Positions 19,293-47,818 of a stretch of DNA of 64,000 bases are shown piece by piece; the stretch's first letter is position 1; every line of letters begins with the position of its first letter. The notes under the pieces are model-generated. The model was not told where the DNA came from, searched no databases, and saw only the letters and a program-made list of their open reading frames with translations. The position numbers and the translations under genes were made by a program. This DNA comes from an uncultured bacterium (lineage in GTDB: Bacteria; Joyebacterota; Joyebacteria; Joyebacterales; Joyebacteraceae), in NCBI GenBank assembly GCA_964516845.1, contig CAZEXP010000001.1, forward strand, positions 124,665-188,664. Direction: 5' to 3'.

Positions 19293-20225
19293 ATGATTCG
19301 AGTGAGCGCCGGAGTGATGGCGTACAACGAGGAGAAGAACATCGAGCGGCTGCTCGAGGCCCTCTCCGCACAGAACCTCAAGACGGTGGAGATCCGCGAG
19401 ATCATCGTGGTCTCGAGCGGTTCGACCGACGCGACCGACGGGATCGTGAGACGCTGGTCGTCCCGTGACGGGCGTGTGCGGCTGATCCGCCAGGAGGAGC
19501 GTCGCGGGAAATCATCCGCCATCAATCTTTTCCTTGCGGAGGCCCGCAAGGACACCGATGTCTACGTGCTCGAGAGCGGGGACACCGTGCCCCATCCGGA
19601 CTGCGTCGAGAACATGGTCGCGCCGTTCGCCGATGAGACGGTCGGGATGACCGGAGGACGGCCGACGCCGGTCGATGACGCCGACACGTTCATGGGATTC
19701 GTCGTTCACATGCTCTGGCGGCTGCACCACCGGTTGGCTCTGAAGACGCCGAAGCTCGGGGAGATGGTCGCGTTTCGCTCGTTCGTCACGAGGATCCCGC
19801 CCGAGAGCGCCGTCGATGAAGCATCTATCGAGGCCATCGTCGTCGAGCGCGGCAAGAGACTGCTCTACGCTCCCGAGGCCATCGTGTACAACAAGGGTGC
19901 CGCCACCGTGCGTGACTTCCTCAAGCAGCGCCGCAGGATCTATGCAGGACATCTCTGGCTCGAACGGGAACAGTCGTATGAGGTCTCGACCAAGAAGGTC
20001 GGCGGCATCCTCTCGGTACTCGTCGAGGACTTCCGGTTCTCGCCGAGGAATCTCGCATGGACGCTGAGCGGCGTCTGGCTCGAGTTCGTCGGCCGGCTTC
20101 TCGGGCTGTTCGATTTCCACGTCCTGGGCAGGAACCCTTTCACGTGGGACGTCTCCGAGACCACGAAGGACCTCAGCGACGTGCCGCCCGCCCACGCTCA
20201 CACCCGCACATCCGGAGACTCATGA
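19293..20225 (+). CDS. Glycosyltransferase family 2
   Basis: ATG 19293 with RBS ggagg. GT-A N-terminus (GVMAYNEEKNIERLLEAL) and acidic sugar-binding segment (SGSTDATD). Confidence 0.75.
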   Translation: MIRVSAGVMAYNEEKNIERLLEALSAQNLKTVEIREIIVVSSGSTDATDGIVRRWSSRDGRVRLIRQEERRGKSSAINLFLAEARKDTDVYVLESGDTVPHPDCVENMVAPFADETVGMTGGRPTPVDDADTFMGFVVHMLWRLHHRLALKTPKLGEMVAFRSFVTRIPPESAVDEASIEAIVVERGKRLLYAPEAIVYNKGAATVRDFLKQRRRIYAGHLWLEREQSYEVSTKKVGGILSVLVEDFRFSPRNLAWTLSGVWLEFVGRLLGLFDFHVLGRNPFTWDVSETTKDLSDVPPAHAHTRTSGDS

Positions 20226-21331
20226 TGCTGGGCGTCCTCGCTCGCATACCGCTCTACGGGGCGATGCGCACCTTCGGCCGGCCGCGGATGCTGCCGCTCA
20301 ACCTTACGGTGAGCGTGACCTACCGGTGCAACTCGCGTTGCCGCACCTGCAATGTCTACGAGCGGGAGGCGGTGGAGTTCACGTCAGAGGAGTTCGCGCG
20401 GGTGTTCCGCTCGCTGGGTCGCGCTCCGTACTGGTACACCATGAGCGGCGGAGAGCCGTTCCTCAGAAAGGATCTGCCCGAGATCTGCGCGAGCGCAGCC
20501 GAGGCCGGGGCGCCGGGCATCATCAACATCCCGACCAACGGCATCCTCAGCGATCGGATCCCGGACATGGTGCGGGAGATCGCGAGGGCGTGCCCGCGGA
20601 CTCAGATCATCATCAACCTGTCGATCGACGAGATCGGGGAACGGCACGACGAGATCCGGGGCGTCCCGGGCAACTTCGAGCGCGCGATGCGGACGTACGA
20701 GGGGCTCCGGGCGATCGACGCGTCCAACCTGACGGTCGGCGTGCACACGGTCATCTCGGTGCACAATGTCGCCCGCATCCCGGAGATCTACCGTCACGTC
20801 ATGCGTGACCTCGCGCCGGACTCCCTCATCACCGAAATCGCTGAGGAGCGCGTGGAACTCGGGACGCTGAACAGCGGCGTCACGCCGGCGCCGGGCGACT
20901 ACGCCGCCGCTGTCGACTTCCTCTCGGCCCGCCTGAAGGAGGAGGAGTTCCACGGGATCAGCCGCATCACGCAGTCGTTCCGCATCCGCTACTACGAGAT
21001 GGTCAAGCGCTACCTGCGGGAGCGGCGGCAGATCATCCCGTGCTACGCGGGAATCGCCTCGGCGCAGATCGCTCCCGACGGCGACGTCTGGTTCTGCTGC
21101 ATCGAGGCGACGTCCGTGGGCAACCTGCGAGACAGCGGATACGATTTCGGGGCCGTCTGGTTCGGCGAGGCGGCGGGCGAGCTCCGGCAGCGCGTGCGCG
21201 ACGGCCTCTGTTCTTGTCCGCTTGCCAACGCCGGATACACCAACATGCTGATGCACCCACCGACGCTGGCGTCCGTCGCCGCGCGGCTGGCGGTCCCGCA
21301 TCGCGCTCAGCGCGCGGGGGGCAAGCGATGA
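20222..21331 (+). CDS. Radical SAM enzyme with C-terminal SPASM/twitch-like Cys cluster
   Basis: CNSRCRTC (CxxxCxxC). C-terminal Cys-rich region CYAG...FCC...CSC. ATGA overlap with the upstream GT2. Confidence 0.8.
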   Translation: MMLGVLARIPLYGAMRTFGRPRMLPLNLTVSVTYRCNSRCRTCNVYEREAVEFTSEEFARVFRSLGRAPYWYTMSGGEPFLRKDLPEICASAAEAGAPGIINIPTNGILSDRIPDMVREIARACPRTQIIINLSIDEIGERHDEIRGVPGNFERAMRTYEGLRAIDASNLTVGVHTVISVHNVARIPEIYRHVMRDLAPDSLITEIAEERVELGTLNSGVTPAPGDYAAAVDFLSARLKEEEFHGISRITQSFRIRYYEMVKRYLRERRQIIPCYAGIASAQIAPDGDVWFCCIEATSVGNLRDSGYDFGAVWFGEAAGELRQRVRDGLCSCPLANAGYTNMLMHPPTLASVAARLAVPHRAQRAGGKR

Positions 21332-22467
21332 GGGTCGTGCTCGGCGAGGTCCGCTCGTACGACGTTGCCGCCATCCGGAGTATGGTGGAGCGCGCTCTGG
21401 CCGACCTCGACATGTCCTTCGCGGGGGCGCGGACGGCGATCGTCAAGCCGAACATCGTGACGGGACGCCGTCCGGACTCGGGTGTCGTGACACATCCGGC
21501 CGTCGTCGAGGCGATCGTGCAGATGCTCCGGGACGCCGGGGTGTCGCGTATCACTCTGGCGGACGGCCCCGGCGTCGGGCTCGACAGCGACTGGGTCTTC
21601 GAGAAATCCGGGTACCGGGCGCTGGCCGACAGGCTCGGCGTCGAGCTGGTGACGTTCAACGGGATTGCGCGGCGGAAGCGGGAGTGGAAGTACGGTGAGG
21701 TCGGGATCCCCGAGATACTCGAGGACGCCGATCTCTACATCAACGTGCCGAAGATGAAGACGCACGGCTACACGACCGTGACGCTCTCGATGAAGAATCA
21801 CAAGGGCATGCTCTCGCAGGCCGACAAGAAGCTCGATCATCACCTCGGGCTGCACGAGCCGCTGGCCGAACAGGCCCGTCTGCGTCCGCCCGACCTCATC
21901 GTGCTCGACGGGATCGTCGGGATCGAGGGAGACGGCCCTCTCAACGGCAAGCGCGTTCATGCGAACCTCCTGGCGGTCGGGACCAACATGCTCGCGGTCG
22001 ACGCGACCGTGGCAAGACACATGGGGATCGAACCGACCGAGATCAAGCATCTCGTGTTCGCGGCGGAGAAAGGCCTCGGGACGCTCGACCCGGACGTCAC
22101 AGGGACGGCTCCGACGCGCCGCTTCGCCAGGGCGAACGAGGAGTATGGACGGGTCGGCAACATCTACTCGTGGCGCGACTGCACGGCGTGCTCGATGTGC
22201 ATCGACTCGTTCGGCGGGGCGGTCTCACTGGCCCTCAAGGAGCCGCGGTACTGGTTCACGCTGGTTCCGAAGCTGGCATGGTGGGGGCTTATCGGAGGGC
22301 TGCACATCGTTCAGGGCCGCGAGGGTCGACTGCCGAACCGGCCGGGCAAGGTGATCTGCTTCGGGAAATGCACCGGCGAACTCGCCGCCCGAGAGGGTCT
22401 CACGCACCTGGCGGGATGTCCGCCGACGGCTCGTGAAGTGGCCGAGGCTCTCAGGAAAGGACTCTGA
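21328..22467 (+). CDS. DUF362-family protein with C-terminal Cys-rich (ferredoxin-like) region
   Basis: ATG 21328 in ATGA overlap. DUF362-like core (IVKPNIV...HPAVVEAIV...INVPKMKTH). C-terminal CTACSMC / CFGKC / GC motifs. Confidence 0.7.
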   Translation: MRVVLGEVRSYDVAAIRSMVERALADLDMSFAGARTAIVKPNIVTGRRPDSGVVTHPAVVEAIVQMLRDAGVSRITLADGPGVGLDSDWVFEKSGYRALADRLGVELVTFNGIARRKREWKYGEVGIPEILEDADLYINVPKMKTHGYTTVTLSMKNHKGMLSQADKKLDHHLGLHEPLAEQARLRPPDLIVLDGIVGIEGDGPLNGKRVHANLLAVGTNMLAVDATVARHMGIEPTEIKHLVFAAEKGLGTLDPDVTGTAPTRRFARANEEYGRVGNIYSWRDCTACSMCIDSFGGAVSLALKEPRYWFTLVPKLAWWGLIGGLHIVQGREGRLPNRPGKVICFGKCTGELAAREGLTHLAGCPPTAREVAEALRKGL

Positions 22468-22470
22468 CGG

Positions 22471-23310
22471 ATGGCCGTAGTCGACCGCGACACCGGTCTG
22501 GGGACCACGTACGAGCGCATCGCAGTGGCCTTGATGCTCGAGCGTTTCGCGGCGCGGCACGACGTGTCGCGCGTGCTCGAGGGGCCGGTGGACGGCATCA
22601 CGGGCATCGCCGGACTCAACAGCATTCCGCTCGCGCAGCGGGGAGCGCGGGTCGATCTTCTCCTTGGAGACAGCGGTCAGCGCGAACTCGCAGGGCGGAT
22701 CTGGCACGGTCTGGGGCTCGCGGACCGATCGAGCATCCGGGTGAGCGAGAACGGGATGCTGTCCGTCCCCGAGCGGTCATACGACCTGGTGTGGAACTTC
22801 AATGCGTTGCCGCAGTCGAAGGACCCCGCGCGCCTGGTCGCGGAGATGTGTGACGCCAGCAACCGCTACGTGATGATCTTCGTCTCGAACACGTGGAACT
22901 ACGGATTCCCGGTGCACCGTCTCCATCACCACGCGGCGCATGAGGACTGGACCCACGGCGACATCGCGTCGATGAACGTGCCCAAGATCGAACGGATGCT
23001 CCGGGACCGTGGATTCGCATCGCGAGAGCGCCTGGTCGTCGACACACCGTGGTGGCCCGACATCGACTCGCCGATCGAGGAGGTCATAGCGACCTTCCTT
23101 CCGTTCCTCAGGCGCCGGGTATCGGGTTCTAAGCGGCTCGAGCACTACACATGGACATGGGATGCCCTCCCGTATTTCGACATGGACAAGCGGAAGCGGC
23201 TGATGGACGAGATCGGAAAGCACTTCGTCATCGAACGTTCGGCTCCGGGCGCGCTGAAGATCCTGTTCGCACATCACCGCGGCGTGCTGGCCGAGAGGAC
23301 GAACGAGTGA
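22471..23310 (+). CDS. Putative class I SAM-dependent methyltransferase-like protein
   Basis: Glycine-rich loop VLEGPVDGITGIAG and acidic segment YDLVWNFNAL. Weak family assignment. Confidence 0.5.
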   Translation: MAVVDRDTGLGTTYERIAVALMLERFAARHDVSRVLEGPVDGITGIAGLNSIPLAQRGARVDLLLGDSGQRELAGRIWHGLGLADRSSIRVSENGMLSVPERSYDLVWNFNALPQSKDPARLVAEMCDASNRYVMIFVSNTWNYGFPVHRLHHHAAHEDWTHGDIASMNVPKIERMLRDRGFASRERLVVDTPWWPDIDSPIEEVIATFLPFLRRRVSGSKRLEHYTWTWDALPYFDMDKRKRLMDEIGKHFVIERSAPGALKILFAHHRGVLAERTNE

Positions 23311-24377
23311 GTCGTAGAAACCGCATACTGATCGCCCTCGTGGTCGGCTGCGTCCTGCTGGCCGTCGCCCTGAGGGGGCTTGATCTCAGGAGCATCGGCG
23401 CGCGCATCGGGAGCGCCGACCCGCGGTGGCTTGCGCTCGCAGCGTTGGTCTATCTCTCGGCCTACTTCGTGCGGAGCCTCAGGTGGCGTCTCATCCTGCG
23501 TCCGATCGAACGCGTCACCGTGCGTGAGAGCTTCGCGATGCTCATGGCCGGGTACTTTCTCAACTACCTCATCCCGATCCGTGCCGGCGAGGTTGCGAAG
23601 TCGTTCTTCCTGAAGCGCATGAAGGGCGTGCCGATCGCCACGAGCCTGCCGACCGTCTTCGTCGACAAGCTGCTCGAGCTCTTCTCGATACTGCTCGTCA
23701 TCGTGATGGTGCCGGTCCTGTCGGTTCGGCTCTCAGGATCACTCGCGTCTCTGATCGTTGCAGTCCTCGTTGTCTTCGTCATGGCTGTCGGGCTGCTGCT
23801 TCTCGCGATCCGGAAGCGCGAAGCTACGGTGCGGCTGATCTGCAGGCTCCTCTCGTGGCTTCCCCGCCGGGCGTACGATCGCATCTCTTCATGGCTGGGG
23901 TTGTTCATCAACGGACTGTCGATGTCGGCCTCGACGGTGCGTGGTCTGTGGGGACTGCTGGCGCTCACCGGCTGCGCGGTCCTGCTCGACGCCGTCTACT
24001 TCCGGCTGATGTTCCTGGCTTTCGACATTCCCGTGAGCTACCCGATCGTGCTCTTCGGCTATACACTGATATCCCTGTCGTATATTCTCCCGACACCGCC
24101 CGCGCAGATAGGCTACAACGAGATGATCATGGAGCTGATCTTCGCTGCCGGACTCGGAATGTCCCGTCCCGACGTGATGGTCGTCATGCTCCTCGCGCAC
24201 CCGCTGACGGGCATTCTCATCACATTGGTCGGGCTCTGGTCGTTCTCATCGATGAGCATTCGCCTGACGGAGAGCTTTCGGCAGATCGAGGAAGAAGGAG
24301 CACTCGCGGGAGCGTCCGCGGACGCGTGTCCGTCACCGGGACCACCGCGCATTGACCAGCAGGGGAGGAATCAGTGA
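23307..24377 (+). CDS. UPF0104 / lysylphosphatidylglycerol-synthase-TM-like (flippase-like) membrane protein
   Basis: GTG 23307 in GTGA overlap. N-terminus RILIALVVGCVLLAVALRGLDL...WLALAALVYLSAYFVRSLRW typical of the family. Eight predicted TM segments. Confidence 0.7.
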   Translation: MSRRNRILIALVVGCVLLAVALRGLDLRSIGARIGSADPRWLALAALVYLSAYFVRSLRWRLILRPIERVTVRESFAMLMAGYFLNYLIPIRAGEVAKSFFLKRMKGVPIATSLPTVFVDKLLELFSILLVIVMVPVLSVRLSGSLASLIVAVLVVFVMAVGLLLLAIRKREATVRLICRLLSWLPRRAYDRISSWLGLFINGLSMSASTVRGLWGLLALTGCAVLLDAVYFRLMFLAFDIPVSYPIVLFGYTLISLSYILPTPPAQIGYNEMIMELIFAAGLGMSRPDVMVVMLLAHPLTGILITLVGLWSFSSMSIRLTESFRQIEEEGALAGASADACPSPGPPRIDQQGRNQ

Positions 24378-25330: not shown

Positions 25331-25346
25331 CGAAGGAGTGACACAC

Positions 25347-26291
25347 ATGACGGTGACGATACTGATCCCGCTCTACAACGAAGAGGGGAGTCTCCGGGAA
25401 CTCGTGGAGGCCATCTCGGCGGCGATGTCGCCAACGGGCTGGGCCTGGGAGATCCTCTTCATCAATGACGGGAGCACGGACGGGTCCCTCGATATACTTC
25501 GTGAGCTGTACGACTCGCGGGACAACATCGAGGTCATCTCTTTCGGACGGAACAGCGGGAAGGCGGCCGGCCTGGCCGTCGGGTTCGCCGAGGCGCGGGG
25601 CGACGTGGTCATCACGATGGACGCGGACCTTCAGGACGATCCCGCCGAGATCCCCGGAATGATCCGGATGCTCGATGAGGGATACGACCTCGTCTCCGGC
25701 TGGAAGAAGGAGCGGCACGACCCACTGTCGAAGCGCATCCCGTCGAAGCTCTTCAACGGCGTCACACGGATGGTCAGCGGGCTGACGCTTCATGACATGA
25801 ACTGCGGCCTGAAGGCCTACCGGCGAGACGTCGTCAAGACCATCAGGGTCTACGGCGAGCTCCACCGGTACACGCCGGTCCTCGCACACTTTGCGGGTTT
25901 CCGTGTGACCGAGACCGTGGTCCGTCACCACGCAAGGAAGTTCGGTCAGTCGAAGTACGGCATCGAGCGGTTCGCGCGAGGCGGCTTCGATCTTCTCACG
26001 GTGCTCTTCCTGCGGCGCTATCTCACACGACCTCTCCACCTGTTCGGGATGCTCGGTTCCATCCTTTTCGCGGGCGGGTTCGGTATCGGCGTCTATCTCA
26101 CGGTCGTGAAGATCATGGGCGGAGCGATCGGCAGACGCCCGCTCCTGACCCTCGGCATCCTGCTGATGGTCGTCGGTGTCCAGTTCGTGTCGCTCGGGCT
26201 CCTCGGCGAGATGATCGCCAATCTCAGGAGCACCGGGATCACGTATCCTATCCTCGAGCACCTCAAGCCGCGCGGAGGGAGTCGTGGTTGA
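25347..26291 (+). CDS. Polyprenyl-phosphate sugar synthase, GT2 (GtrB/ArnC/DPM1-like) with C-terminal TM helices
   Basis: ILIPLYNEEGSL...INDGSTDGS...DADLQDDP...KYGIERF plus two C-terminal TM segments, the typical GtrB architecture. Confidence 0.8.
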   Translation: MTVTILIPLYNEEGSLRELVEAISAAMSPTGWAWEILFINDGSTDGSLDILRELYDSRDNIEVISFGRNSGKAAGLAVGFAEARGDVVITMDADLQDDPAEIPGMIRMLDEGYDLVSGWKKERHDPLSKRIPSKLFNGVTRMVSGLTLHDMNCGLKAYRRDVVKTIRVYGELHRYTPVLAHFAGFRVTETVVRHHARKFGQSKYGIERFARGGFDLLTVLFLRRYLTRPLHLFGMLGSILFAGGFGIGVYLTVVKIMGGAIGRRPLLTLGILLMVVGVQFVSLGLLGEMIANLRSTGITYPILEHLKPRGGSRG

Positions 26292-27474
26292 TGCGCCGAC
26301 CTCCGAGACCAGGGGTCTGACGGACGAGGCCGCTCGAATCGCGATCGTCGGGCCGGCCTATCCGCTGCGCGGCGGAAACGCGCTCTTCGTGGCGCATCTG
26401 CTCGATGCGCTACGGCAGGACCACGACGTGTACGTCGTCTCCTACAGCCGTCTCTACCCGGGGCTGCTCTTTCCCGGCAAGACGCAGATGAACGTCAGCC
26501 GTGACCCGGTGAAGACGACGCCATCGCGGCAGCTGGTTGACTCGATCAATCCCATCAGCTGGTTTCGGACAGCCCGATGGATCTGCGCGCCGAAACGTCG
26601 TCCCGACCTCGTCGTGTTCACGTGGTGGAACCCGTTCTTCGGACCGGCTCTCGGCGCGATCGCGCGACTTGTGAAGCGTGGATGCGGAGCCGGAGTGGTG
26701 TTCGTCGCTGAGAACGTGGTGTCACACGAGAACCGTTTCGTCGATCGCTTCCTGACTCGGTACGCTCTGGCGTCCGCCGACTACTTCCTCGTTCTCTCCG
26801 GGGTCGTGGCCCGGCGGATTCAGTCGCTCTTTCCGGGCGTCCCGGTGCGGCAGGCAGCGCTTCCCATCTATGACTGCTATCGCGCCGATGAGATCGACCG
26901 TGATGCGGTCCGGTCCAGACTCGGGCTGACGAAACCGACGATCCTCTTCTTCGGATACGTCCGAGCCTACAAGGGGCTTCAGTATCTGCTCGAAGCCATG
27001 CCGGCCGTTCTCGAGAAGCACGATGTCCAGCTTCTGGTCGTCGGCGAGTTCTACGATGAACAGCAGCGCTACGAACGGCTGATCGCCGCGCTTGATATCG
27101 GCGAGGCGGTCACCGTCGTCGCGGAGCACGTTCCCGATGAGGCTGTCGGCGAGTACTTCGTGGCGTCGGACGTCGTGGCACTCCCGTATCTCTCCGCGAC
27201 CCAGAGCGGGATCACCCAGATAGCGTACGCCTTCGGACTTCCCGTCATCAGCACGAACGTCGGCGGTCTTCCCGAGGTAGTCAAGGACGGGAGAACGGGC
27301 TATGTTGTAGAGTCGGGCAGCGCTGCGGCGCTCTCGGCCGCCATCGTCCGCTTCTTCGAGGGCGACGAGCAGGCGAAGCTGACACGCGGCGTCGCCGAAG
27401 AGGCGCGGGCCGACCAGGCGGGGGAACTCATGCGTCGCTCGATCGAGGACTTCCTCGAACTCAACAGGGGGTAG
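26284..27474 (+). CDS. Glycosyltransferase family 4 (GT-B)
   Basis: C-terminal GT4 block (YLSATQSGITQIAYAFGLPVISTNVGGLPEVV). Confidence 0.8.
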   Translation: MVDAPTSETRGLTDEAARIAIVGPAYPLRGGNALFVAHLLDALRQDHDVYVVSYSRLYPGLLFPGKTQMNVSRDPVKTTPSRQLVDSINPISWFRTARWICAPKRRPDLVVFTWWNPFFGPALGAIARLVKRGCGAGVVFVAENVVSHENRFVDRFLTRYALASADYFLVLSGVVARRIQSLFPGVPVRQAALPIYDCYRADEIDRDAVRSRLGLTKPTILFFGYVRAYKGLQYLLEAMPAVLEKHDVQLLVVGEFYDEQQRYERLIAALDIGEAVTVVAEHVPDEAVGEYFVASDVVALPYLSATQSGITQIAYAFGLPVISTNVGGLPEVVKDGRTGYVVESGSAAALSAAIVRFFEGDEQAKLTRGVAEEARADQAGELMRRSIEDFLELNRG

Positions 27475-27475
27475 C

Positions 27476-28384
27476 ATGCCGGACCCGGCGGTCACTGCGG
27501 TTGTGATCAACTGGAACGGGATACCCGTGATCGAGGCATGTCTCGCGTCGCTTCTCGACTCGACGTATGAGCGGCTCTCGGTTCTGGTGGTCGACAACGC
27601 CTCCGAGGACGATTCGGTCTCCGTCATCCGAGAACGCTACCCGGCCGTCCGCATCGAAAGTACAGGGAGGAATCTCGGCTACGCCGGGGGCGCGAATCAC
27701 GGCCTCAGGGCCGCGCGCGCTTCCGGGGCGGCGTATGTTCTCCTGATGAATAACGACGTGGAGATCGCGCCGGATGCCGTTGGGGAGCTGGTTCGGGCCG
27801 CCGAGGAACACCCGGACGCCATGCTGCTCGGTCCGAAGATCTACTACTTCGACCGGCCGGACGTCATCTGGTCCGCCGGTGGGGTCGTGTCGTTCTGGAC
27901 CGGCAACATCCGGCACCTGGGGATCCGGGAGCAGGACCACGGGCAGTTCGACGAACTCCGCGAGGTCGACTATCTGACGGGGTGCGCCGTGCTGCTCCCG
28001 GCGCGGACGCTCGAGACGGTCGGCGAGCTCGATGAGACGTACTACATGTACAACGAGGACACCGACTGGTCGACCCGCGTCATACGGTCGGGCGGAAAGG
28101 TCCTCTACGTGCCGTCGGCCCGGCTCTGGCACAAGGTGTCGTCGAGTTCGGGAGGGGGCCTGACGAGCTACAAGATCTATCACCGGATACGCAGCACGCT
28201 GGCGTATTTCAGACGATATGCGGCGTGGTACCAGTGGTTCGGCATCCTGCCCGCGACAGCGGCGCGGACGATCACGTTCGCCTTTGCGCAGATAGCGCAC
28301 GGCGAGGGGGGGCGCGTCTCAGCGCTCATTCGCGGGATAGCCGACGGCGCCACGGGGAGGCGGAGGGGCTACACGAATGACTAG
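27476..28384 (+). CDS. Glycosyltransferase family 2 (rhamnosyltransferase-like)
   Basis: VVINWNGIPVIEACLASL...VVDNASEDDS...LLMNNDV...TGCAVLL. Confidence 0.8.
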   Translation: MPDPAVTAVVINWNGIPVIEACLASLLDSTYERLSVLVVDNASEDDSVSVIRERYPAVRIESTGRNLGYAGGANHGLRAARASGAAYVLLMNNDVEIAPDAVGELVRAAEEHPDAMLLGPKIYYFDRPDVIWSAGGVVSFWTGNIRHLGIREQDHGQFDELREVDYLTGCAVLLPARTLETVGELDETYYMYNEDTDWSTRVIRSGGKVLYVPSARLWHKVSSSSGGGLTSYKIYHRIRSTLAYFRRYAAWYQWFGILPATAARTITFAFAQIAHGEGGRVSALIRGIADGATGRRRGYTND

Positions 28385-29783: not shown

Positions 29784-29806
29784 TCGTGTTCCAACCCGGG
29801 AGAGAC

Positions 29807-30916: not shown

Positions 30917-30941
30917 AGCCGCGCTGAGCAGAGAGAGGGCT

Positions 30942-34047: not shown

Positions 34048-34084
34048 CGGGGCTCGCGCAAACCCAACGACGAGAGAGGAACCC

Positions 34085-39365: not shown

Positions 39366-39385
39366 GCCTGACAGGAGGTACTGAT

Positions 39386-40729: not shown

Positions 40730-40784
40730 GCGCGGTGGAACAAGCGATCGAGCGTTGATACCCTGGACAACACGAGGATGATCC

Positions 40785-42248
40785 ATGAGCAACGAGGCTG
40801 GGAAGACACGAACACTGATCGTTGGCGCGGGCTCGGCCGGTGGAATGGTCGCGGAGGAGATGCGCCTCAGGCCCGAGCAGGGCTACGCTGCGGTCGGGTT
40901 CCTGGATGACGATACCGCGAAGATCGGGACGCAGGTCGCAGGACTTCCCGTACTCGGCAAGACCTCCGACCTCGTCCGGATCGTCAGGGACTCCGGGATC
41001 GATCAGGTCGTCATAGCGATCCCGTCCGCATCGGGATCCTCCATTCGGAGCGTGGTGGAGCTGTGTGAGGAAGCCGGAACGCCGGCGAAGATCGTTCCGG
41101 GGGTCTGGGAGATCATCCTCGGCGACGTCACGATCAGCCAGCTTCGGCAGGTGGTTCCCGAGGACCTGCTCGGGCGCGAGACGGTGGTGCTCGACTGCGA
41201 GGAGATGACCGGGTACCTGAGCGGTCGCACCGTCCTTATCACGGGAGCGGGGGGATCGATCGGATCGGAACTCGCGCGGCAGGTCGCCTCGTTCGGTCCC
41301 GCCAAGCTGATCATGATGGGTCGTGGTGAGAACAGCATCTACGAGATCGACCAGGAGATCGGCCAGGACTACCCGGACGTCGATCGTCACCTCGTCATCA
41401 GCAGCATCTCCGACCCGATGGCGGTCGAGGTGCTCTTCCGGGACGAGCATCCGGAGATCGTTCTCCACGCCGCGGCGCACAAGCATGTCCATCTGATGGA
41501 GGCCTTCCCGGACGAGGCCGTGAAGAACAACGTGATGGGAACGCGGATCCTCATCGACGCCGCCGTCCGCTACGGCGCCGACCGCGTCGTCATGCTGTCC
41601 ACGGACAAGGCCGTGCGACCCAGAGGCGTCATGGGCGCTTCGAAGCGTGTCGCGGAGTCGATCATGATCGAACGGGCCTCGCGGGGGAGCGCGACCAAGC
41701 TCATCGCCGTCCGGTTCGGCAACGTCCTGGGCAGCCGCGGGAGCGTCGTCCCGCTCTTCCGTCAGCAGATCAGTCACGGAGGTCCGGTGACCGTGACTCA
41801 CCCGGACGTCACACGGTACTTCATGACGATCCGCGAGGCCGCGATGCTCGTTCTCGAGGCGGGTCTCACGGGCCGGGGTGGGGAAATCTTCGTGCTCGAT
41901 ATGGGCGAACCCATGCGCATCGCGGACCTCGCCACGCACCTGATACGGCTCTCCGGGCTCGAGCCCGGCAGGGATATTGCTATTGAGTTCACGGGCCTGC
42001 GGCCGGGGGAGAAGCTCCATGAGGAGCTGTGGTACTCGGACGAGACCCTCCTTGAGACAGGCAGAAAGAAGGTGATGGTCGTCCAGTCTCCGAAGGACGC
42101 CGTCGTCCCGGACCTCTGGGACCGCGTCAGGCGGCTCGAGGAGTTCGCAGAGCACTGCGACCGGGTCGGCGTCATCCGGGAGCTTGCCGACATCTTCCCC
42201 GACATGAAGGTAAGGACGGGCCATGACGACGAAGACGCCGGCCGCTGA
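40785..42248 (+). CDS. UDP-sugar 4,6-dehydratase (CapD/PglF/WbpM family)
   Basis: Two Rossmann regions. VLITGAGGSIGSELARQ and downstream SDR catalytic motifs. Confidence 0.85.
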   Translation: MSNEAGKTRTLIVGAGSAGGMVAEEMRLRPEQGYAAVGFLDDDTAKIGTQVAGLPVLGKTSDLVRIVRDSGIDQVVIAIPSASGSSIRSVVELCEEAGTPAKIVPGVWEIILGDVTISQLRQVVPEDLLGRETVVLDCEEMTGYLSGRTVLITGAGGSIGSELARQVASFGPAKLIMMGRGENSIYEIDQEIGQDYPDVDRHLVISSISDPMAVEVLFRDEHPEIVLHAAAHKHVHLMEAFPDEAVKNNVMGTRILIDAAVRYGADRVVMLSTDKAVRPRGVMGASKRVAESIMIERASRGSATKLIAVRFGNVLGSRGSVVPLFRQQISHGGPVTVTHPDVTRYFMTIREAAMLVLEAGLTGRGGEIFVLDMGEPMRIADLATHLIRLSGLEPGRDIAIEFTGLRPGEKLHEELWYSDETLLETGRKKVMVVQSPKDAVVPDLWDRVRRLEEFAEHCDRVGVIRELADIFPDMKVRTGHDDEDAGR

Positions 42249-43422
42249 GGGCGGCACGCCGGTCAGAGACAACTTCCTGGCGTTCGCGCGCCCTTGCATC
42301 GAGGCGGCGGACATTGAGCTCGTGGTCGAGACGCTGCGGTCCGGGTGGCTCACCGTAGGACCCAGGACACACGACTTCCAGCGCCGAGTAGCCGAGTACG
42401 TCGGCGTCGAGTCCGCGGCCGCGCTGAACTCCTGCACCGCAGGGCTGCATCTCGCCATGGTGGCGCTGGGCATCGGTCCCGGTGATGAGGTCATCCTGCC
42501 GACGATCGACTTCGTGTCCGGAGCGAACACGGTCTGCCATCTTGGGGCCACACCGGTACTCGTCGACGTTGACGCCGAGACGATCTGCGTCACTCCGAAC
42601 ATATTCGAAGCCGCCATCACGGACCGGACGCGTCTGCTGATGCCGGTCCACTTCGCCGGAAGACCGTGCGACATGGACGGCATCATGGAGCTCGCCCGGA
42701 CCCGCGGCATCAAAGTGCTCGGAGACGCCGCGCACGCCATCGGCGCCGACATCGGCGGACGACGCATCGGGAGCATGGCCGACGCGACGTCCTTCAGCTT
42801 CTACGTCACCAAGGGGATCACGACTGGTGAGGGCGGCGCCGTCACATCGACGGACCCGGACCTCACGGCGCGGATCGCGCTACTCGGGCTCCATGGCATG
42901 AGCAGCGACGCCTGGAAGCGCTACAGCGAGAGAGGGCCGTGGTACTACGAAGTGCTCGAAGCAGGGTATAAGTGCAACATGAGCGACATGCAGGCAGCGC
43001 TGGGCCTGTCGCAGATCGATCGCGTGGACACGTTCCGTGAGCGTCGTCGCGAGATCGCCGACGCCTACACCGCCGCGTTCGCGCAGGACCCGAGCATCAC
43101 GCCGCCCGCCGCGTACCTCGACGGACATCACGCGTGGCATCTCTATCCGATCCAGATCGACGTGGACGCTCTCTCGATCGACCGCGACCAGTTCATCAAA
43201 CAGCTGGTCGAGGAAGGTATCGGGGTCAGCGTTCACTTCATTCCGGTTCACTACCATCCGTACTACCGCAAGCTGCTCGGCCTGGAGCGTGGCAGCTTCC
43301 CTGTGGCGGAACACTACTTCGAACGCGCCGTCTCGCTCCCCATCTATCCCTCGATGACTTCGGGCGATGTGGACGACGTGATCGAGGCGGTGCGCAAGCT
43401 GACCTCGTATCACAGGAGGTAG
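42223..43422 (+). CDS. DegT/DnrJ/EryC1/StrS-family PLP-dependent sugar aminotransferase
   Basis: GDEVILPTIDFVS and the PLP-lysine region SFSFYVTKGITTGEGG. Confidence 0.85.
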   Translation: MTTKTPAAEGGTPVRDNFLAFARPCIEAADIELVVETLRSGWLTVGPRTHDFQRRVAEYVGVESAAALNSCTAGLHLAMVALGIGPGDEVILPTIDFVSGANTVCHLGATPVLVDVDAETICVTPNIFEAAITDRTRLLMPVHFAGRPCDMDGIMELARTRGIKVLGDAAHAIGADIGGRRIGSMADATSFSFYVTKGITTGEGGAVTSTDPDLTARIALLGLHGMSSDAWKRYSERGPWYYEVLEAGYKCNMSDMQAALGLSQIDRVDTFRERRREIADAYTAAFAQDPSITPPAAYLDGHHAWHLYPIQIDVDALSIDRDQFIKQLVEEGIGVSVHFIPVHYHPYYRKLLGLERGSFPVAEHYFERAVSLPIYPSMTSGDVDDVIEAVRKLTSYHRR

Positions 43423-43427
43423 CCGTC

Positions 43428-44408
43428 GTGGAGTACACGGTCACCTCACATGTGGATGCAAGGTCGTGGGACGACCTCGTCGCGGGGGACCGTTCAGCGA
43501 GCTTCTTCCAGAGCCGCGTCTGGTCCGAGGTGCTCTCGAGCACACTCCCGGACCACGAGCCGCTCTTCGTCGCGGCGCATCGTGGTGACGAACTCGTCGC
43601 CGGGATTCCCGTCATCCGGCGCAGCCGCGGTCCCGTGATGGTCGTCGAATCGATGCCGTTCGGAACCTACGGCGGCGTGCTCACCACCGACAGGGCGCCG
43701 TCGCAGGCCGCCGCGGAGCTCGTCCTTGCGTTGCTGGACGCCGTCGACGGGATCACGGTCGGGCAGATCCGCATCGTGGATTTCAACGGACGACTCGCGG
43801 ACGCTTGCGACGGATTCGAGCCCGTGACAAGCGAGGCGCAGGTGCTCGATCTCGACCGCCCGTACGATGATGTCTGGGCGGGATTCCGCTCGTCGGTGCG
43901 CAACAAGGTCCGCAAGGCCGAGAAGGCCGGCGTGACGATTCGCGAGGCGCGCGGGACGGATGACTTTCATGCGTATCATCGGCTCCTCGAGGAATGCTCC
44001 GAACGTTGGGGAACGACCAACTCGTTTGATGAGGACTTCTTCGCCGCCCTCGCCGAGAGCGGCAGCGACGCGGTCCAGATGTGGCTCGCGGAGTACGATG
44101 GAGAGATCATAGGCGGAGATCTGAACTTCGTCACTGCTACCTCGGTGTTCAACTGGGGCAATGTCTCGCACCGGGAGTCCGCCAGCCTCGGCACGGTCCC
44201 GCTCCTTCATGCGAACGCCATCGAGGACGGTTGTCGCCGCGGACTGACGACGTACAATCTCGGCGGAAGCGGCGGGATCGACGCCGTCGCCAGGTTCAAG
44301 TCGGCATTTGGAACGAGGTGTGTTCCGTACACCGAGTACGTGCTCGAGAAGGGATGGATGAAGCTCGGGAAGCGTCTCAGGGGACGCATCGAAGGAGACG
44401 CAGCGTGA
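43428..44408 (+). CDS. FemAB/BioF2-like GNAT-fold acyltransferase
   Basis: GTG 43428 with RBS aggagg 8 nt upstream. FemAB-family-like length and pattern (NKVRKAEKAGV...YHRLL...YNLGGSGG). Family call is tentative. Confidence 0.55.
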   Translation: MEYTVTSHVDARSWDDLVAGDRSASFFQSRVWSEVLSSTLPDHEPLFVAAHRGDELVAGIPVIRRSRGPVMVVESMPFGTYGGVLTTDRAPSQAAAELVLALLDAVDGITVGQIRIVDFNGRLADACDGFEPVTSEAQVLDLDRPYDDVWAGFRSSVRNKVRKAEKAGVTIREARGTDDFHAYHRLLEECSERWGTTNSFDEDFFAALAESGSDAVQMWLAEYDGEIIGGDLNFVTATSVFNWGNVSHRESASLGTVPLLHANAIEDGCRRGLTTYNLGGSGGIDAVARFKSAFGTRCVPYTEYVLEKGWMKLGKRLRGRIEGDAA

Positions 44409-45727
44409 ACAGCCGAGCCAGAACGCTCCTCATCATCGCGGTCGCCATCCACGCCGTCATGCTCGCGTCGCTCGTCCACCCTGGACACTTCCTCAACCCG
44501 CTCTTCCCGGAGGCCGTGCACACCATCGCGACGGTCTACGATGAAGGAGTGGCGGTCGGCACACTGGAGGGCGGCGGCCTCGGCGCCGATTTCTTCGCGT
44601 TCTACCAGGCCGGCAGGTATGTCCTCAATGGTGATGACATCTACCGACGCCCGATGGACGATCCCGAGCGCGTCGTGCCGTATGGCTATTTCTATCGCTA
44701 CCTCCCCTTCGTCGCGTACACGCTCGGGGTCGCGTCCAACGCGGTTCCCCCGTGGACGGCGTACTGGCTCTGGGTGCTCCTTGTCGAACTCGTGCTCCTC
44801 TGGTGCATCCTGCTGACGTATCGCGCCGTGCGGGACGGTTGGCTCTTCGCGATGCTGGCGACGATGTGGCTCGTCTTCACGCCGTTCTACATGGAGCAGT
44901 ACATGGGTCAGCTCTCGTTCGTAATGGGCGCGCTGATCTTCGCCATGGTACTGGCCCACGGCCGCGGTCGGGTGAAGCGGTTCGACTGGCTCTGGATCGC
45001 GAGCGTGGTCATCAAGCACATGACCGTCCTGTTCATCCCGATCATGGTCCGCCTGAGGAGATTCGGGACCGTCGCGCTTGCGGGGCTCCTTCTCGGACTG
45101 ACCGCCGTGCCGTATCTGCTGCTTCGCGACAGCGGTGTCGGCGACTTCACGCATGACAATTTCAATCTGACACTCTACCCGTACTCCGGGAATCTCGGCG
45201 CTCTCGCGCTGGTGATGGTGCTCAAGGCGCGCCTCTTGCCGATGGCGTCGGAGATCGGTTTCCAGCTGGGGCCGATCCGCATGACGATCACGCGGATGGC
45301 GATACTCGGGACGATGGCGGTTCCGACACTCGCGGCCCTCTGGGCGACGTTCCGAAGGCGTCCGTTCGATCTCGTGGAGTCGGTCAGCCTCTGGACGATG
45401 GTCTACTTCTTCGTGTTCCGGGAGATATGGGAGTACCACTATGTGCTCCTGATACCGATCTTCGTGCTGCTCTACATGAAGACACGCGCGCGCGTCCTCT
45501 GGTGGATGTACGCGCTGGCGGCGATGCCGACGCTGTTCATTCTCTACGACGTCCCGGCCGCCAAGAGTCCTGAGGTGTACTGGAGCGCGTGGGAACACAT
45601 CCTGAACCACGGCATGAAGGTTGCACCGCTGGTCTGGCTGTTCGTCTGGGTCGCGTGGGGCTTCTACCGGCGCCATGTCACACGGACGGAGCGAGGATCG
45701 ACCAACGATCTGGCGGTCGTTCTCTAG
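44405..45727 (+). CDS. DUF2029 / GT87-like polytopic membrane glycosyltransferase (polyprenyl-P-sugar dependent, GT-C fold)
   Basis: GTG 44405 in GTGA overlap. Periplasmic-loop motif DFFAFYQAGR and about 10 TM helices. Confidence 0.6.
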   Translation: MNSRARTLLIIAVAIHAVMLASLVHPGHFLNPLFPEAVHTIATVYDEGVAVGTLEGGGLGADFFAFYQAGRYVLNGDDIYRRPMDDPERVVPYGYFYRYLPFVAYTLGVASNAVPPWTAYWLWVLLVELVLLWCILLTYRAVRDGWLFAMLATMWLVFTPFYMEQYMGQLSFVMGALIFAMVLAHGRGRVKRFDWLWIASVVIKHMTVLFIPIMVRLRRFGTVALAGLLLGLTAVPYLLLRDSGVGDFTHDNFNLTLYPYSGNLGALALVMVLKARLLPMASEIGFQLGPIRMTITRMAILGTMAVPTLAALWATFRRRPFDLVESVSLWTMVYFFVFREIWEYHYVLLIPIFVLLYMKTRARVLWWMYALAAMPTLFILYDVPAAKSPEVYWSAWEHILNHGMKVAPLVWLFVWVAWGFYRRHVTRTERGSTNDLAVVL

Positions 45728-45758
45728 CACGTCGCCGTGAAACGACTGGAGTCGAGTG

Positions 45759-46871
45759 ATGCGGATCGCGTATCTCTCCATCGGGGGACACATTCACACC
45801 GAGAGGTGGCTGAGACACTTCGTCAACGCGGGACACGACGTCCACCTGATGACGGTCCAGCCCGCGCCGATCGACGGTGTCACCGTTCACGACATCCGGA
45901 CCGGTATTCCGATCAAACCGCTCCACTATGCCGTCGCGCTCGCCAGGGTCAAACGGATCCTGCGAACGATCAAGCCCGATCTGCTCCACACGCACTTCCT
46001 TACCGGATACGGGTACTGGGGAGCCTTCTCGGGCTTCCATCCGTTCATCATGACCGTCTGGGGCGACGATGTGTACGTCACACCGCACGAGACGAAGCTC
46101 AAGGGCTCGCTGGCGAGAGCCGTGCTCGGTCGCGCCGATCTCATCACGGGGGATTCCGAGGACATCCTGACTCACGTCGTGCGGATGGGCGCCGACCCGG
46201 ATATCTGCCGCGTGGTTCAGTGGGGCGTCGATCTCGACCGCTTCCGGCCCGACGCGGACGGCGGGGTCAGGAGGATGCTGGGCATCCCCGAGGACGCGCC
46301 CGTGGTGATCAGTATCAGGAGCTTCACGCAGGCCTACTACAACATCGACACCATCGTTCGCACTGCTCCCGGTGTTCTCGAGAAGCGCCCCGACACGCAC
46401 TACATCATCGCGGGGAACGAGGGAGACGACTCGGAGCTCCGCGCGCTCGCAGATTCTCTCGGCCTCGATGATCGCATCCACTTCGTAGGACGCATCCCGC
46501 ACGAGGAGCTTCCCGGATACCTGGCGACATCCGACGTGTTCCTGACGGTTCCATCGGTCGATGCCACACCGGTCTCTCTGCTCGAGGCCATGGCGTGCGG
46601 CGTGGCGGTGATCATCTCCAACCTCGAGTCCGCCATGGAGTGGGTGACCGACGGCGAGAACGGTCTCGTCGTCAGGCCCGCCGAACGGCGGGAGCTCGAA
46701 GACGCGATTCTGAAGCTCATCGGCGACCCCGCGGCCCGCGAGCGCTTCGCCGCCATCGGCGTCCGGAAGGTGCGCGAGGGCGCCGACCACGCCCGGCACA
46801 TGGACCGGATGGAGCGGCTCTGCGAGGAACTCATCGCCGGGGGAAAGCCGCGAGCCGGAGGAACATCGTGA
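45759..46871 (+). CDS. Glycosyltransferase family 4 (GT-B)
   Basis: C-terminal GT4 signature (VSLLEAMACGVAVIISNLESAMEWVTDGENGL). GTG 45756 or ATG 45759 are both possible starts. Confidence 0.8.
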   Translation: MRIAYLSIGGHIHTERWLRHFVNAGHDVHLMTVQPAPIDGVTVHDIRTGIPIKPLHYAVALARVKRILRTIKPDLLHTHFLTGYGYWGAFSGFHPFIMTVWGDDVYVTPHETKLKGSLARAVLGRADLITGDSEDILTHVVRMGADPDICRVVQWGVDLDRFRPDADGGVRRMLGIPEDAPVVISIRSFTQAYYNIDTIVRTAPGVLEKRPDTHYIIAGNEGDDSELRALADSLGLDDRIHFVGRIPHEELPGYLATSDVFLTVPSVDATPVSLLEAMACGVAVIISNLESAMEWVTDGENGLVVRPAERRELEDAILKLIGDPAARERFAAIGVRKVREGADHARHMDRMERLCEELIAGGKPRAGGTS

Positions 46872-47818
46872 CGACCGTCAGCGTGGTCATTCCCACGTTT
46901 GGCAAGCGTCCGGTCCTCGAACGCACGCTGGAGTCCCTGCGTGTCCAGACGTACCCGACCGAGCTGACAGAGATCGTCGTGGTTGACGACCACTCGGACG
47001 ACGATACGTCGGAGTACCTCCGGAGCCTCTCGCTTCCGCAGCGCCTTGTCGCGATCCGGCACGATGAGAATCTCGGGCGCGCGGCGGCGCGCAACACGGG
47101 CGTCCGCTCGGCCACGGGAGAGCTGATCGTGTTCGTGGATGACGACATGCTCTGCGAGCCCGATCTCATCGAACAGCACGTGGTCTTCCACCAGGATCAC
47201 CCACGGTCTGTCGCTATCGGCGACGCGGTGCAGGCCCCCGAACTCGGCCACTCGACGGCGCTTTCGTACCTCGATGAGATGGGCGTCCACAAACACGAGT
47301 CCGGCTCGCGGGTGCCGGCGCGGTACTTCGTCACGAACAACAGCTCCGTCGAACGCCAATCCATACTCGACGTCGGTCTCTTCGACGAGAGCTTCCGCAA
47401 CTACGGATTCGAGGATACGGAGCTGGCTTTCCGGCTCGAGGACAACGCGGGTCTCTCGACCTGGTACTGCGGGGAGGCGCGCGCCCTCCACGTGCATCCG
47501 CAGTCGTTCGACGACATCCTCGACAAGAGGATCGAGAACGCGCCGCCGCTGCGACACCTCCTCGCGAAGCACCCGGATCGGGCGGGGGAGATGATGGTGG
47601 ACGTCCTGCTGCCCGTTGCCGCCGGTGACTCGGCCGCGCTCAGGGTTCGGAAGCTCCTGGTGGCCGTCGCCACGAACCGGCTCTTCTACCGGACGGTCCG
47701 CGCCGTTGCCAGGACCATCTGGCTTCGTGGACTCTCGCTCAAGGTGATGACCTACCTGATCGCCTGCCAGTACCGCGCGGGGCTCGCGCGGCCCCCACAT
47801 ACTCAGGAACGCCCCTGA
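46868..47818 (+). CDS. Glycosyltransferase family 2
   Basis: GTG 46868 with RBS ggaggaa in GTGA overlap. VSVVIPTFGKRPVLERTLESL...VVDDHSDDDT...VFVDDDM. Confidence 0.75.
   Translation: MTTVSVVIPTFGKRPVLERTLESLRVQTYPTELTEIVVVDDHSDDDTSEYLRSLSLPQRLVAIRHDENLGRAAARNTGVRSATGELIVFVDDDMLCEPDLIEQHVVFHQDHPRSVAIGDAVQAPELGHSTALSYLDEMGVHKHESGSRVPARYFVTNNSSVERQSILDVGLFDESFRNYGFEDTELAFRLEDNAGLSTWYCGEARALHVHPQSFDDILDKRIENAPPLRHLLAKHPDRAGEMMVDVLLPVAAGDSAALRVRKLLVAVATNRLFYRTVRAVARTIWLRGLSLKVMTYLIACQYRAGLARPPHTQERP

Follow-up and report, generated by a model that had tools for sequence, protein, structure and literature searches.

A conserved gene block for a probable lipid-linked envelope glycan, possibly linked to type IX secretion, in an uncultured bacterium

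What does a bacterium build with a long series of glycan genes that all point the same way and carry in their midst a secreted beta-propeller protein? This question is raised by positions 19293-47818 of a 64,000-nt stretch of DNA from an uncultured bacterium, hereafter the window, which a preliminary description had presented as one unidirectional surface-glycan locus of about 25 genes. Our analysis indicates that the block very probably encodes a conserved pathway for a lipid-linked envelope glycan and forms one operon-like unit. The best explanation, to which we assign a probability of roughly 0.5, is that it is a native, conserved assembly line for an envelope glycoconjugate, linked to a type IX secretion system (T9SS) through the propeller protein, G17.

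Genes were called by frame analysis of the third-position GC content (GC3) in the window, which has a GC content of 65%, and start codons were picked by their position relative to the preceding stop. This analysis yielded 23 coding-like open reading frames (ORFs) in the block, all on the plus strand as had been described; the earlier count was somewhat too high, as no gap in the block is big enough for a further gene. Neighbouring genes overlap at 11 of the 22 junctions, no gap is wider than 55 nt, and coding sequence makes up a fraction of 0.991 of the block. The genes are listed below with Pfam and NCBIfam scores in bits; "core" marks members of the conserved core described further on.

19293..20225, plus strand: G01, soluble family 2 glycosyltransferase (GT2) with no transmembrane (TM) helices; Glycos_transf_2 89
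20222..21331, plus strand: G02, radical S-adenosylmethionine (SAM)/SPASM enzyme; Radical_SAM 59.6, SPASM 28.6, no NCBIfam equivalog at cut-off
21328..22467, plus strand: G03, DUF362 protein; DUF362 164.5
22471..23310, plus strand: G04, class I SAM-methyltransferase-like; the window protein has no Pfam match, some homologues have Methyltransf matches
23307..24377, plus strand: G05, flippase-like membrane protein (MprF TM-domain family); LPG_synthase_TM 147.8, TIGR00374 97 (cut-off 43), about 6 TM helices
24374..25330, plus strand: G06, nucleotide-diphosphate-sugar epimerase/dehydratase of the short-chain dehydrogenase/reductase type, core; Epimerase 200
25347..26291, plus strand: G07, ArnC/PgfS-type polyprenyl-phosphate sugar synthase (GT2), core; NF007986 ArnC 205 and PgfS 149, both below the equivalog cut-offs
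26284..27474, plus strand: G08, family 4 glycosyltransferase (GT4); Glyco_trans_1_4 101.6
27476..28384, plus strand: G09, GT2 glycosyltransferase, core, kept in Krumholzibacteriota loci; Glycos_transf_2 85
28377..29783, plus strand: G10, periplasmic lipoprotein of the alkaline-phosphatase superfamily; Phosphodiest 108.5, lipobox LSGC behind an N-terminal hydrophobic segment
29807..30916, plus strand: G11, family 9 glycosyltransferase (GT9, heptosyltransferase family); Glyco_transf_9 73.9, lipopolysaccharide (LPS) heptosyltransferase models 62-79, below their cut-offs
30942..32729, plus strand: G12, polytopic anchor with a periplasmic alkaline-phosphatase-superfamily domain; Phosphodiest 101 (residues 210-481), about 6 N-terminal TM helices
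32767..34047, plus strand: G13, Wzx-type flippase; Polysacc_synt 44.2 (cut-off 28.2), about 12 TM helices
34085..36499, plus strand: G14, YfhO-family membrane glycosyltransferase of the GT-C fold class, core; YfhO 52.7 (cut-off 28.5), about 14 TM helices
36496..37209, plus strand: G15, short soluble GT2 of the dolichyl/polyprenyl-phosphate hexose synthase type, core; Glycos_transf_2 107, AglJ, DPM-like and PpgS models 51-63
37161..39365, plus strand: G16, fusion of an N-terminal GT2 domain (26-137) with a large monotopic phosphoglycosyltransferase (PGT), core; CoA_binding_3 (348-526), Bac_transf (563-717), 4 TM helices
39386..40729, plus strand: G17, secreted single seven-bladed Reg_prop beta-propeller with a T9SS type A C-terminal sorting domain (CTD), PorZ-like
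40785..42248, plus strand: G18, PglF/CapD-type UDP-N-acetylhexosamine (UDP-HexNAc) 4,6-dehydratase, core; Polysacc_synt_2 364.5, PseB model 180, below cut-off
42223..43422, plus strand: G19, DegT/PglE-type sugar aminotransferase, core; DegT_DnrJ_EryC1 410, PseC model 391 (cut-off 423)
43428..44408, plus strand: G20, Fem-fold tandem-GNAT transferase (VimA/pepcterm_femAB family), core; Acetyltransf_6 68.7, FemAB 40.7, TIGR03019 72 (below cut-off)
44405..45727, plus strand: G21, GT87-like GT-C membrane glycosyltransferase; GT87 36.4 (cut-off 25), at least 8 TM helices
45759..46871, plus strand: G22, GT4 glycosyltransferase; Glycos_transf_1 115, Glyco_trans_4_2 92
46868..47818, plus strand: G23, GT2 glycosyltransferase, last gene of the block; Glycos_transf_2 110

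We read the block as a single pathway; its domain content covers every step, each of which we infer from family assignments. G18 and G19 would convert UDP-HexNAc to UDP-4-amino-4,6-dideoxy-HexNAc, the amine of which would be acylated by G20, most likely with an amino acid, and G06 would supply a second modified sugar. G16 would move a sugar-phosphate onto undecaprenyl phosphate, with its fused GT2 domain adding the next sugar. The chain would be extended by the soluble GT2, GT4 and GT9 enzymes G08, G09, G11, G22, G23 and perhaps G01, and flipped to the periplasmic face by G13. Its decoration there would draw on polyprenyl-phosphate sugars, with G07 and G15 as their synthases and the GT-C enzymes G14 and G21 as the transferases, while G10 and G12 would add or trim phospho-substituents. 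At the cell surface G17 would work on the completed glycan; most likely, in the manner of PorZ, it would bind this glycan and present it so that T9SS cargo can be attached. This presentation, and the use of the G20 product as acceptor sugar, are the more speculative parts of the scheme. A lipid-linked glycan assembled on both sides of the membrane had been proposed before, and every element of that proposal now has a matching domain assignment: G16 and the soluble glycosyltransferases for the cytoplasmic face, Wzx for translocation, and the two synthase-type GT2s, the two GT-C enzymes, G10 and G12 for the periplasmic face.

By its domains, G16 is the initiating polyprenyl-phosphate PGT, scoring 91.7 bits against Bac_transf (cut-off 27) and 225 bits against TIGR03025, under the subfamily cut-off of 295. 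Its architecture unites two of the monotopic PGT classes in the literature, "large" and "bifunctional" (PMC11626204). The matches of G07 and G15 to models of dolichyl- or undecaprenyl-phosphate sugar synthases also lie below the equivalog cut-offs; G07 carries C-terminal TM segments at residues 232-289. The architecture of G12 is EptA/LtaS-like. G02 probably tailors a sugar or a lipid, and G01-G05 together look like a tailoring and flipping module specific to Eisenbacteria.

Is this gene set peculiar to one genome? The relatives retrieved with one block protein as query are metagenome-assembled genomes; the labelled ones are Candidatus Eisenbacteria (58-63% identity), and more distant ones are labelled Krumholzibacteriota, "Fibrobacteraceae" and, in one case, Gemmatimonadales. 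From these labels the organism, which we take to be one of the Candidatus Eisenbacteria, is an uncultured bacterium within the Fibrobacteres-Chlorobi-Bacteroidetes (FCB) group. Exact copies of the window proteins were found on a 234-kb NCBI contig and on short Logan contigs. From G08 or G09 through G23 the genes are colinear in six related genomes (L003, L006, L008-L011; 47-93% identity), and from smc or ribD through G13 they are colinear in L083-L085 (49-82%). Across Eisenbacteria the block is colinear at about 60% protein identity. G04 homologues, some of which are named SAM-dependent methyltransferases by their sources, keep at least 60% identity across Eisenbacteria, and full-length G16 homologues 58-88%.

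More than 50 Krumholzibacteriota-type loci keep the order G06-G07-G09-G14 (YfhO)-G15-G16-[propeller-CTD protein of 806-850 aa]-G18-(G19)-G20. In these loci the G06 homologues (46-51% identity) hold the same relative position, and identity is 27-37% for G14, 54-65% for G15 and 33-44% for G16. The flanks were described from L036 (1-21497), L025, L039, L040 and L059. An LPG_synthase_TM gene and a GT-C of about 950 aa, TMEM260-like and of the protein O-mannosyltransferase type (151-158 bits), lie 5' of the core, and a Wzx/MurJ-like flippase gene followed directly by mraZ and rsmH, with which the division and cell-wall (dcw) cluster begins, lies 3' of it. Homologues of G01-G05, G08, G10-G13 and G21-G23 were not detected in Krumholzibacteriota loci at the thresholds used. 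By this comparison, the Eisenbacteria block is a conserved core of 9-10 genes plus the lineage-specific modules G01-G05, G08, G10-G13 and G21-G23. The synteny that the preliminary description had named as a check is thus present, with the proviso that only this core extends to Krumholzibacteriota. O-antigen and capsule loci are normally hypervariable at the strain level; the conservation seen here is unlike theirs and points to a core component of the envelope. The GC content of the block (64.7%) matches that of the window (65.2%), so the block appears native, with no sign of recent transfer.

Does the block form one unit? The seven 4-nt overlaps reported before (at 20222, 21328, 23307, 24374, 36496, 44405 and 46868) are all real: in each, an in-frame ATG or GTG overlaps the preceding TGA, and a GGAG-like motif lies 5-10 nt 5' of the start. 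Such overlaps at about one-third of junctions are usual for operons of high-GC genomes, and those of the block are not unusual. The overlap of G15 and G16, about 40-49 nt in different frames (37161-37209 in the window; 10001-10013 in L003), exceeds the usual 4-nt coupling length and is seen in relatives too. No strong terminator or conserved promoter of the kind that, by the preliminary description, would speak against a single block was found inside it. The whole window contains just three perfect hairpins of 11 bp or more, all outside the block and one of them the 16-bp GC hairpin described below, consensus scans of the block gave no more terminator-like sites than did shuffled sequences, and promoter-like sites in its first half were not in excess over shuffles. 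A second promoter scan (37000-50500) returned six sites against 1.2 expected; three of the six sit on the minus strand, and another is the promoter of the microcompartment operon outside the block. Neither the G17-G18 gap (55 nt), nor the gap upstream of G01 (76 nt), nor the stretch just after G23 folded better than shuffled sequence, and a search inside the block for sigma54 and sigma70 promoters with two conserved motifs learned from the 3' spacer gave no intergenic match. These results suggest that a single long transcript probably covers the whole block and may run into it from the nusB and metallophosphoesterase genes upstream.

It might be argued that several unrelated units merely lie co-directionally in a region that is nearly all on one strand. 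The plus-strand run extends from about 6206 to 57046, far beyond the block, and takes in selA, smc, ftsY, a flavin mononucleotide (FMN) riboswitch, ribD-E-BA-H, nusB and the metallophosphoesterase gene upstream, and a microcompartment locus downstream. The unidirectional layout therefore stands as an observation and is not specific to the glycan genes. Also in line with separate units are the failure to detect G01-G05, G08, G10-G13 and G21-G23 in Krumholzibacteriota (though genes for a Wzx/MurJ-like flippase and an LPG_synthase_TM protein are present in those loci), the missing GT87-like G21 between the G20 and G22 homologues of the more distant relative L089 (10563-12409), and a weak promoter-like site within the G17-G18 gap. 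However, that gap is only 16 nt in L006, so a conserved internal promoter is not required; all 23 products belong to glycan-assembly families or are encoded between such genes; and no gap exceeds 55 nt and no strong hairpin lies inside. We therefore regard unrelated units as very unlikely and retain a single operon-like unit.

The gene directly 5' of G01, in the window and in relatives, is the following.

18491..19216, plus strand: metallophosphoesterase; Metallophos_2 (Pfam) 63 bits

Between it and G01 lie 76 nt in the window and 18 nt in L083, and in L084 the two genes overlap by 4 nt. Position 19293 therefore marks the 5' boundary in terms of function and is not a demonstrated limit of transcription. 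Transcription may enter the block from the nusB and metallophosphoesterase genes, and the latter may be the first gene of the unit, its membership being uncertain. An LpxH-like role for this protein was considered and set aside, since it gave no LpxH match and only generic YfcE/ApaH-type matches. Farther upstream, an FMN riboswitch at 14125-14244 (110.7 bits), the only Rfam match at gathering level, precedes ribD-ribE-ribBA-ribH-nusB, and this array runs into the metallophosphoesterase gene and the glycan block without a strong terminator. The 3' boundary of the block is clear.

What kind of glycan would such a unit make? In pairing a polyprenyl-phosphate-loading GT2 with a YfhO-family GT-C, the block resembles the CsbB/YfhO system of Bacillus subtilis, GtlA/GtlB of Listeria, PgfS/PgfM1/PgfE of Streptococcus mutans and the Gtr systems. 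G14 and G15 are translationally coupled, G15 starting in an ATGA overlap with the end of G14; the epimerase G06 is adjacent, and the ArnC/PgfS-like G07 is present. The block differs from these systems in that its host is probably diderm and the set lies within a Wzx-dependent oligosaccharide pathway. The small flippase GtrA/GtcA gave no match in the block, and the MprF-TM-like G05, present instead, may substitute for it.

Two GT-C enzymes and two polyprenyl-phosphate-sugar synthases might instead serve a general O-glycosylation of periplasmic or surface proteins. The lipid-linked oligosaccharide and the polyprenyl-phosphate sugars would then be donors for protein-glycosylating GT-C enzymes, YfhO and GT87 here, YfhO and the TMEM260-like protein in Krumholzibacteriota, and G17 would be a dedicated acceptor or chaperone. 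The likeness of G06, G07 and G14 to the S. mutans set PgfE, PgfS and PgfM would suit this view, as would the protein O-mannosyltransferase-type enzyme that heads the Krumholzibacteriota clusters and the lack of a polymerase or ligase, which fits a short glycan. The bacillosamine-type pgl protein-glycosylation systems of Campylobacter jejuni and Neisseria are similar in having a PglF-like dehydratase (as G18), a PglE-like aminotransferase (as G19), an undecaprenyl-phosphate PGT and a short lipid-linked oligosaccharide with no polymerase. They differ from the block, in which the N-acylating enzyme is of the Fem fold rather than the left-handed beta-helix PglD, the PGT is a large GT2 fusion rather than the small PglC, and Wzx takes the place of the ABC transporter PglK. 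YfhO-type enzymes, moreover, are best documented on teichoic acids and with monosaccharide donors (PMC5836110, PMC8035078). Finally, no STT3/PglB or PglL/Wzy_C-type oligosaccharyltransferase was found among the 23 proteins, and nothing points to an acceptor protein. General protein O-glycosylation is thus improbable, and the envelope-glycoconjugate assembly line remains our preferred reading.

Where, then, does the propeller protein belong? The earlier identification of a beta-propeller protein with a T9SS-like tail was confirmed: G17 has Reg_prop repeats, a hydrophobic N-terminus constituting a signal peptide, and a CTD that matches the NCBIfam T9SS type A sorting domain TIGR04183 with 34.7 bits, above the cut-off of 23. 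The tail carries the motifs YPNP...GVYLIRV...KLAIIR and scores 20 bits against Pfam Por_Secre_tail, below its cut-off of 27. The best NCBIfam match of G17 is the PorZ model NF052228 (64.4 bits, E 7e-18), with the best stretch aligning residues 319-447 to model positions 631-757. An AlphaFold model, with a predicted local distance difference test score (pLDDT) of 87 and a predicted template-modelling score (pTM) of 0.84, shows one seven-bladed propeller and a beta-sandwich CTD; for this predicted structure the top match among solved structures is PorZ, though not clearly ahead of other propellers. By sequence profile, the periplasmic sensor domains of the Bacteroides hybrid two-component systems (HTCS) BT4663 and BT3049 are stronger matches (E 1e-63 to 1e-66) than PorZ (E 1e-25), whose alignment is colinear to the C-terminus. 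These sensor domains are of the same Reg_prop family and are known glycan binders, but they are double propellers on a membrane kinase, whereas G17 is single, secreted and fitted with a T9SS sorting domain, without signalling modules.

Orthologues of G17, about 447 aa long and sharing 43-100% identity, group tightly among sequences of the Eisenbacteria type. A profile search with the CTD matched the C-terminus of the ORF that directly follows the G16 homologue at every one of the 59 loci (59 of 59) with that homologue in full length and sufficient DNA beyond it. The Krumholzibacteriota proteins encoded at this position have the size of two propellers and T9SS CTD matches, and hhalign joined the G17 family to an 834-aa Krumholzibacteriota protein with 96.5% probability. 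As judged from sequence, G17 is an integral, position-conserved member of the cluster with a PorZ-like domain composition. PorZ is a binder of anionic LPS (A-LPS), which it provides to the PorU sortase (PMC12365241). That the locus is functionally tied to T9SS through G17 we put at even odds.

A more ordinary reading is that the block is a Wzx-dependent locus for LPS (core or O-antigen) or exopolysaccharide (EPS), in which the secreted propeller-CTD protein binds or processes glycan as an accessory, or is mere T9SS cargo, with no part in attaching other T9SS cargo. All enzyme families present are standard for O-antigen, lipooligosaccharide and EPS clusters, including GT9 and WbaP/WcaJ-type models, and like the Wzx/Wzy clusters of, for instance, Salmonella (WbaP-initiated), the block is co-directional and combines a large monotopic PGT, Wzx, several GT2 and GT4 enzymes and nucleotide-sugar tailoring. 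The closeness in sequence profile of the G17 propeller to glycan-sensing HTCS domains, its PorZ score far under the cut-off and the lack of T9SS attachment genes nearby also speak for such a locus. Unlike Wzx/Wzy clusters, however, the block has no detected Wzy, Wzz, WaaL or Wza/Wzc, and its order and sequence are conserved across the phylum at about 60% protein identity, with its core in a second phylum. The strict adjacency of the propeller-CTD gene to the initiating transferase gene in all 59 loci also argues for an integral role. On this evidence we consider an ordinary LPS or EPS locus unlikely, and we return to the T9SS-linked assembly line.

What might G20 contribute to such a link? Its best NCBIfam family is TIGR03019 (71.9 bits), although it falls below the cut-off of 260 and thus outside formal family membership. 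VimA of Porphyromonas gingivalis matches TIGR03019, and VimA sets which amino acid, serine or glycine, goes on the sugar that links T9SS cargo to A-LPS (PMC7468200). The AlphaFold2 model of G20 (pLDDT 93) has a tandem-GNAT Fem fold, and all of its top 24 Foldseek matches in the Protein Data Bank are aminoacyl-tRNA-dependent transferases: Sbb17/Sba18 (E 2e-17), FemX (TMq 0.72-0.77), then FemA and the MprF synthase domain. CoA-dependent GNATs rank below them. The substrate of Sbb17/Sba18 is an amino sugar. The modelled fold thus makes G20 a probable aminoacyl-tRNA-dependent N-aminoacyl transferase, and with G18 and G19 encoded directly upstream, the simplest reading would be N-aminoacylation of the 4-amino-4,6-dideoxy-HexNAc. 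We also considered G05 and G20 as a split MprF, G05 resembling the flippase domain and G20 the synthase fold; this was set aside, as G20 is nearer to FemX and Sbb17 than to MprF and in both phyla keeps its place beside the PglF/PglE genes.

T9SS sorting domains occur widely in the FCB superphylum, and the anchoring of T9SS cargo is known mainly from P. gingivalis and close relatives, where it depends on one form of LPS. A bolder proposal, possible but doubtful, is that the locus makes the anchor glycan for covalent attachment of T9SS cargo in Eisenbacteria and Krumholzibacteriota. The product of G18, G19 and G20 would then be N-aminoacylated, its free amino group would be the acceptor of the sortase, by analogy with the seryl or glycyl linking sugar of the Wbp/Vim pathway of P. 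gingivalis and Tannerella forsythia, and G17 would be a minimal, single-propeller PorZ delivering the glycan. Like the PorZ/A-LPS system of P. gingivalis, the block has a WbaP-type initiating transferase, an amino sugar made by a DegT-type aminotransferase and then handled by a Fem-like transferase of the VimA/TIGR03019 family, and a Reg_prop propeller ending in a T9SS CTD, all in a host of the FCB group. It differs in that its sugar pathway is PglF/PglE-like (4-amino-4,6-dideoxy) and not Wbp (2,3-diamino uronic acid), and in that it has no VimE deacetylase, WbpS, WaaL or Wzy.

Several observations weigh against the T9SS-linked assembly line. The PorZ equivalog cut-off is 260, far above the score of G17, and G17 (447 aa) has one propeller where PorZ (776 aa; structure 5M11) has two, so on both counts G17 falls outside PorZ in the formal sense. 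No PorU, PorV, PorQ or T9SS core genes were identified in the window. In P. gingivalis, porZ lies outside the A-LPS locus and the linking sugar is the product of another pathway, Wbp, whereas the propeller gene here is inside the glycan operon. The Fem fold of G20 is no proof of an aminoacyl donor, and acyl-CoA could be used. Searches of Pfam and NCBIfam found no Wzy, WaaL, Wzz, export or STT3/PglL oligosaccharyltransferase families among the 23 proteins, although Wzy proteins are divergent and the Wzy, Wzz and WaaL genes may sit elsewhere in the genome. Lastly, a single operon is suggested by the spacing of the junctions alone.

The FadL/Toluene_X-like outer-membrane protein at 57193-58560 on the minus strand was tried as PorV/PorQ and rejected, its match to that family being 43.8 bits (cut-off 90) over only 33 N-terminal residues. 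It scores 81.6 bits against BamG (below the cut-off of 250) and has weak sequence matches in the Protein Data Bank; it could be an FCB-type Bam or a T9SS accessory barrel. We found nothing specific in the literature on T9SS or glycans in Eisenbacteria or Krumholzibacteriota.

How does the block end? A 16-bp GC hairpin had been given as its terminus. The hairpin exists but lies outside the block, behind a small-RNA-like element. We aligned the region after the last glycosyltransferase gene in 11 sequences, six genomes and five metagenome contigs (window 47893-48128; L003 20790-21045, L006 16590-16860, L008 20700-20965, L009 20840-21105, L010 20765-21030; L086-L090), which delineated the following features.

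47893-47908, plus strand: sigma54-type promoter, TGGCAC-N6-TGCT, invariant in the 11 sequences
47944-48046, plus strand: core of a rod-like RNA, 103 nt, 83-98% DNA identity (neighbouring proteins 50-90%, flanking ones down to 50-60%)
48056-48090, plus strand: 16-bp GC hairpin, terminator-like, 14 GC pairs, -39.4 kcal/mol, 238 nt past the last stop
48099-48128: promoter of the microcompartment operon, conserved TTGACA-N18-TAGACT, in front of pduL

The 103-nt core folds as a rod-like hairpin with a minimum free energy of -44.6 kcal/mol (z -2.8) and two covarying pairs. No Rfam family matched the element at gathering level, the best being 6S RNA (19.9 bits, gathering 46.4, E 0.057). The sequence of the GC hairpin varies between relatives with pairing kept, and in L089 the strong hairpin after the core is absent. 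Since the hairpin stands directly behind a small-RNA element with its own promoter, it is not simply the terminator of the glycan operon; it would also stop read-through from the block. The conserved spacer thus appears to be a separate unit, a candidate new sigma54-dependent small RNA between the glycan block and the microcompartment operon.

Other features of the window surround these units. The microcompartment locus (48206-54828), which has its own promoter and in relatives, too, lies beside the glycan genes, encodes PduL, two BMC-H proteins, an aldehyde dehydrogenase, an RnfC/PduS-like flavoprotein, a tandem BMC protein, EutN and a class II aldolase, a composition resembling the sugar-aldehyde microcompartments of the Planctomycetes/Verrucomicrobia type. 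On the minus strand at 5947-5962, a near-perfect sigma54 promoter (TGGCACGTGGTTTGCA) lies about 32 nt 5' of the ORF 4506-5915 (minus strand), which encodes a 469-aa protein with no Pfam or NCBIfam match; this promoter and that of the small RNA indicate that the organism uses sigma54. A selA gene (selenocysteine synthase, 436 bits) at 6206-7645 suggests that it probably uses selenocysteine.

What does the locus mean for the envelope of these bacteria? Each of its parts has a known family, and glycan clusters that depend on Wzx are common. The novelty lies in how these parts are put together: a fusion of GT2 with a large PGT, a Fem-fold enzyme replacing PglD, two pairs of polyprenyl-phosphate-sugar synthase and GT-C, an obligatory gene for a PorZ-like, T9SS-sorted protein, and conservation in two candidate phyla. 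If the T9SS link is wrong, the block is an ordinary, though unusually conserved, glycan gene cluster. If the anchor-glycan proposal is true, Bacteroidota would no longer be the only group with a defined pathway for a T9SS attachment glycan, and for the first time a PorZ-type delivery protein would be encoded within the operon of its own glycan. One block physically joins an initiating PGT, a PorZ-like T9SS-sorted propeller, an amino-sugar pathway and a VimA-type Fem-fold transferase, and its conservation in two candidate phyla makes it a concrete, testable candidate for the anchor pathway and the sugar of the sortase. Colinearity across the phylum marks the product as a core envelope component and not a variable antigen. 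With rib and nusB as neighbours here and the dcw cluster in Krumholzibacteriota, the locus informs on the cell envelope of lineages without a cultured representative.

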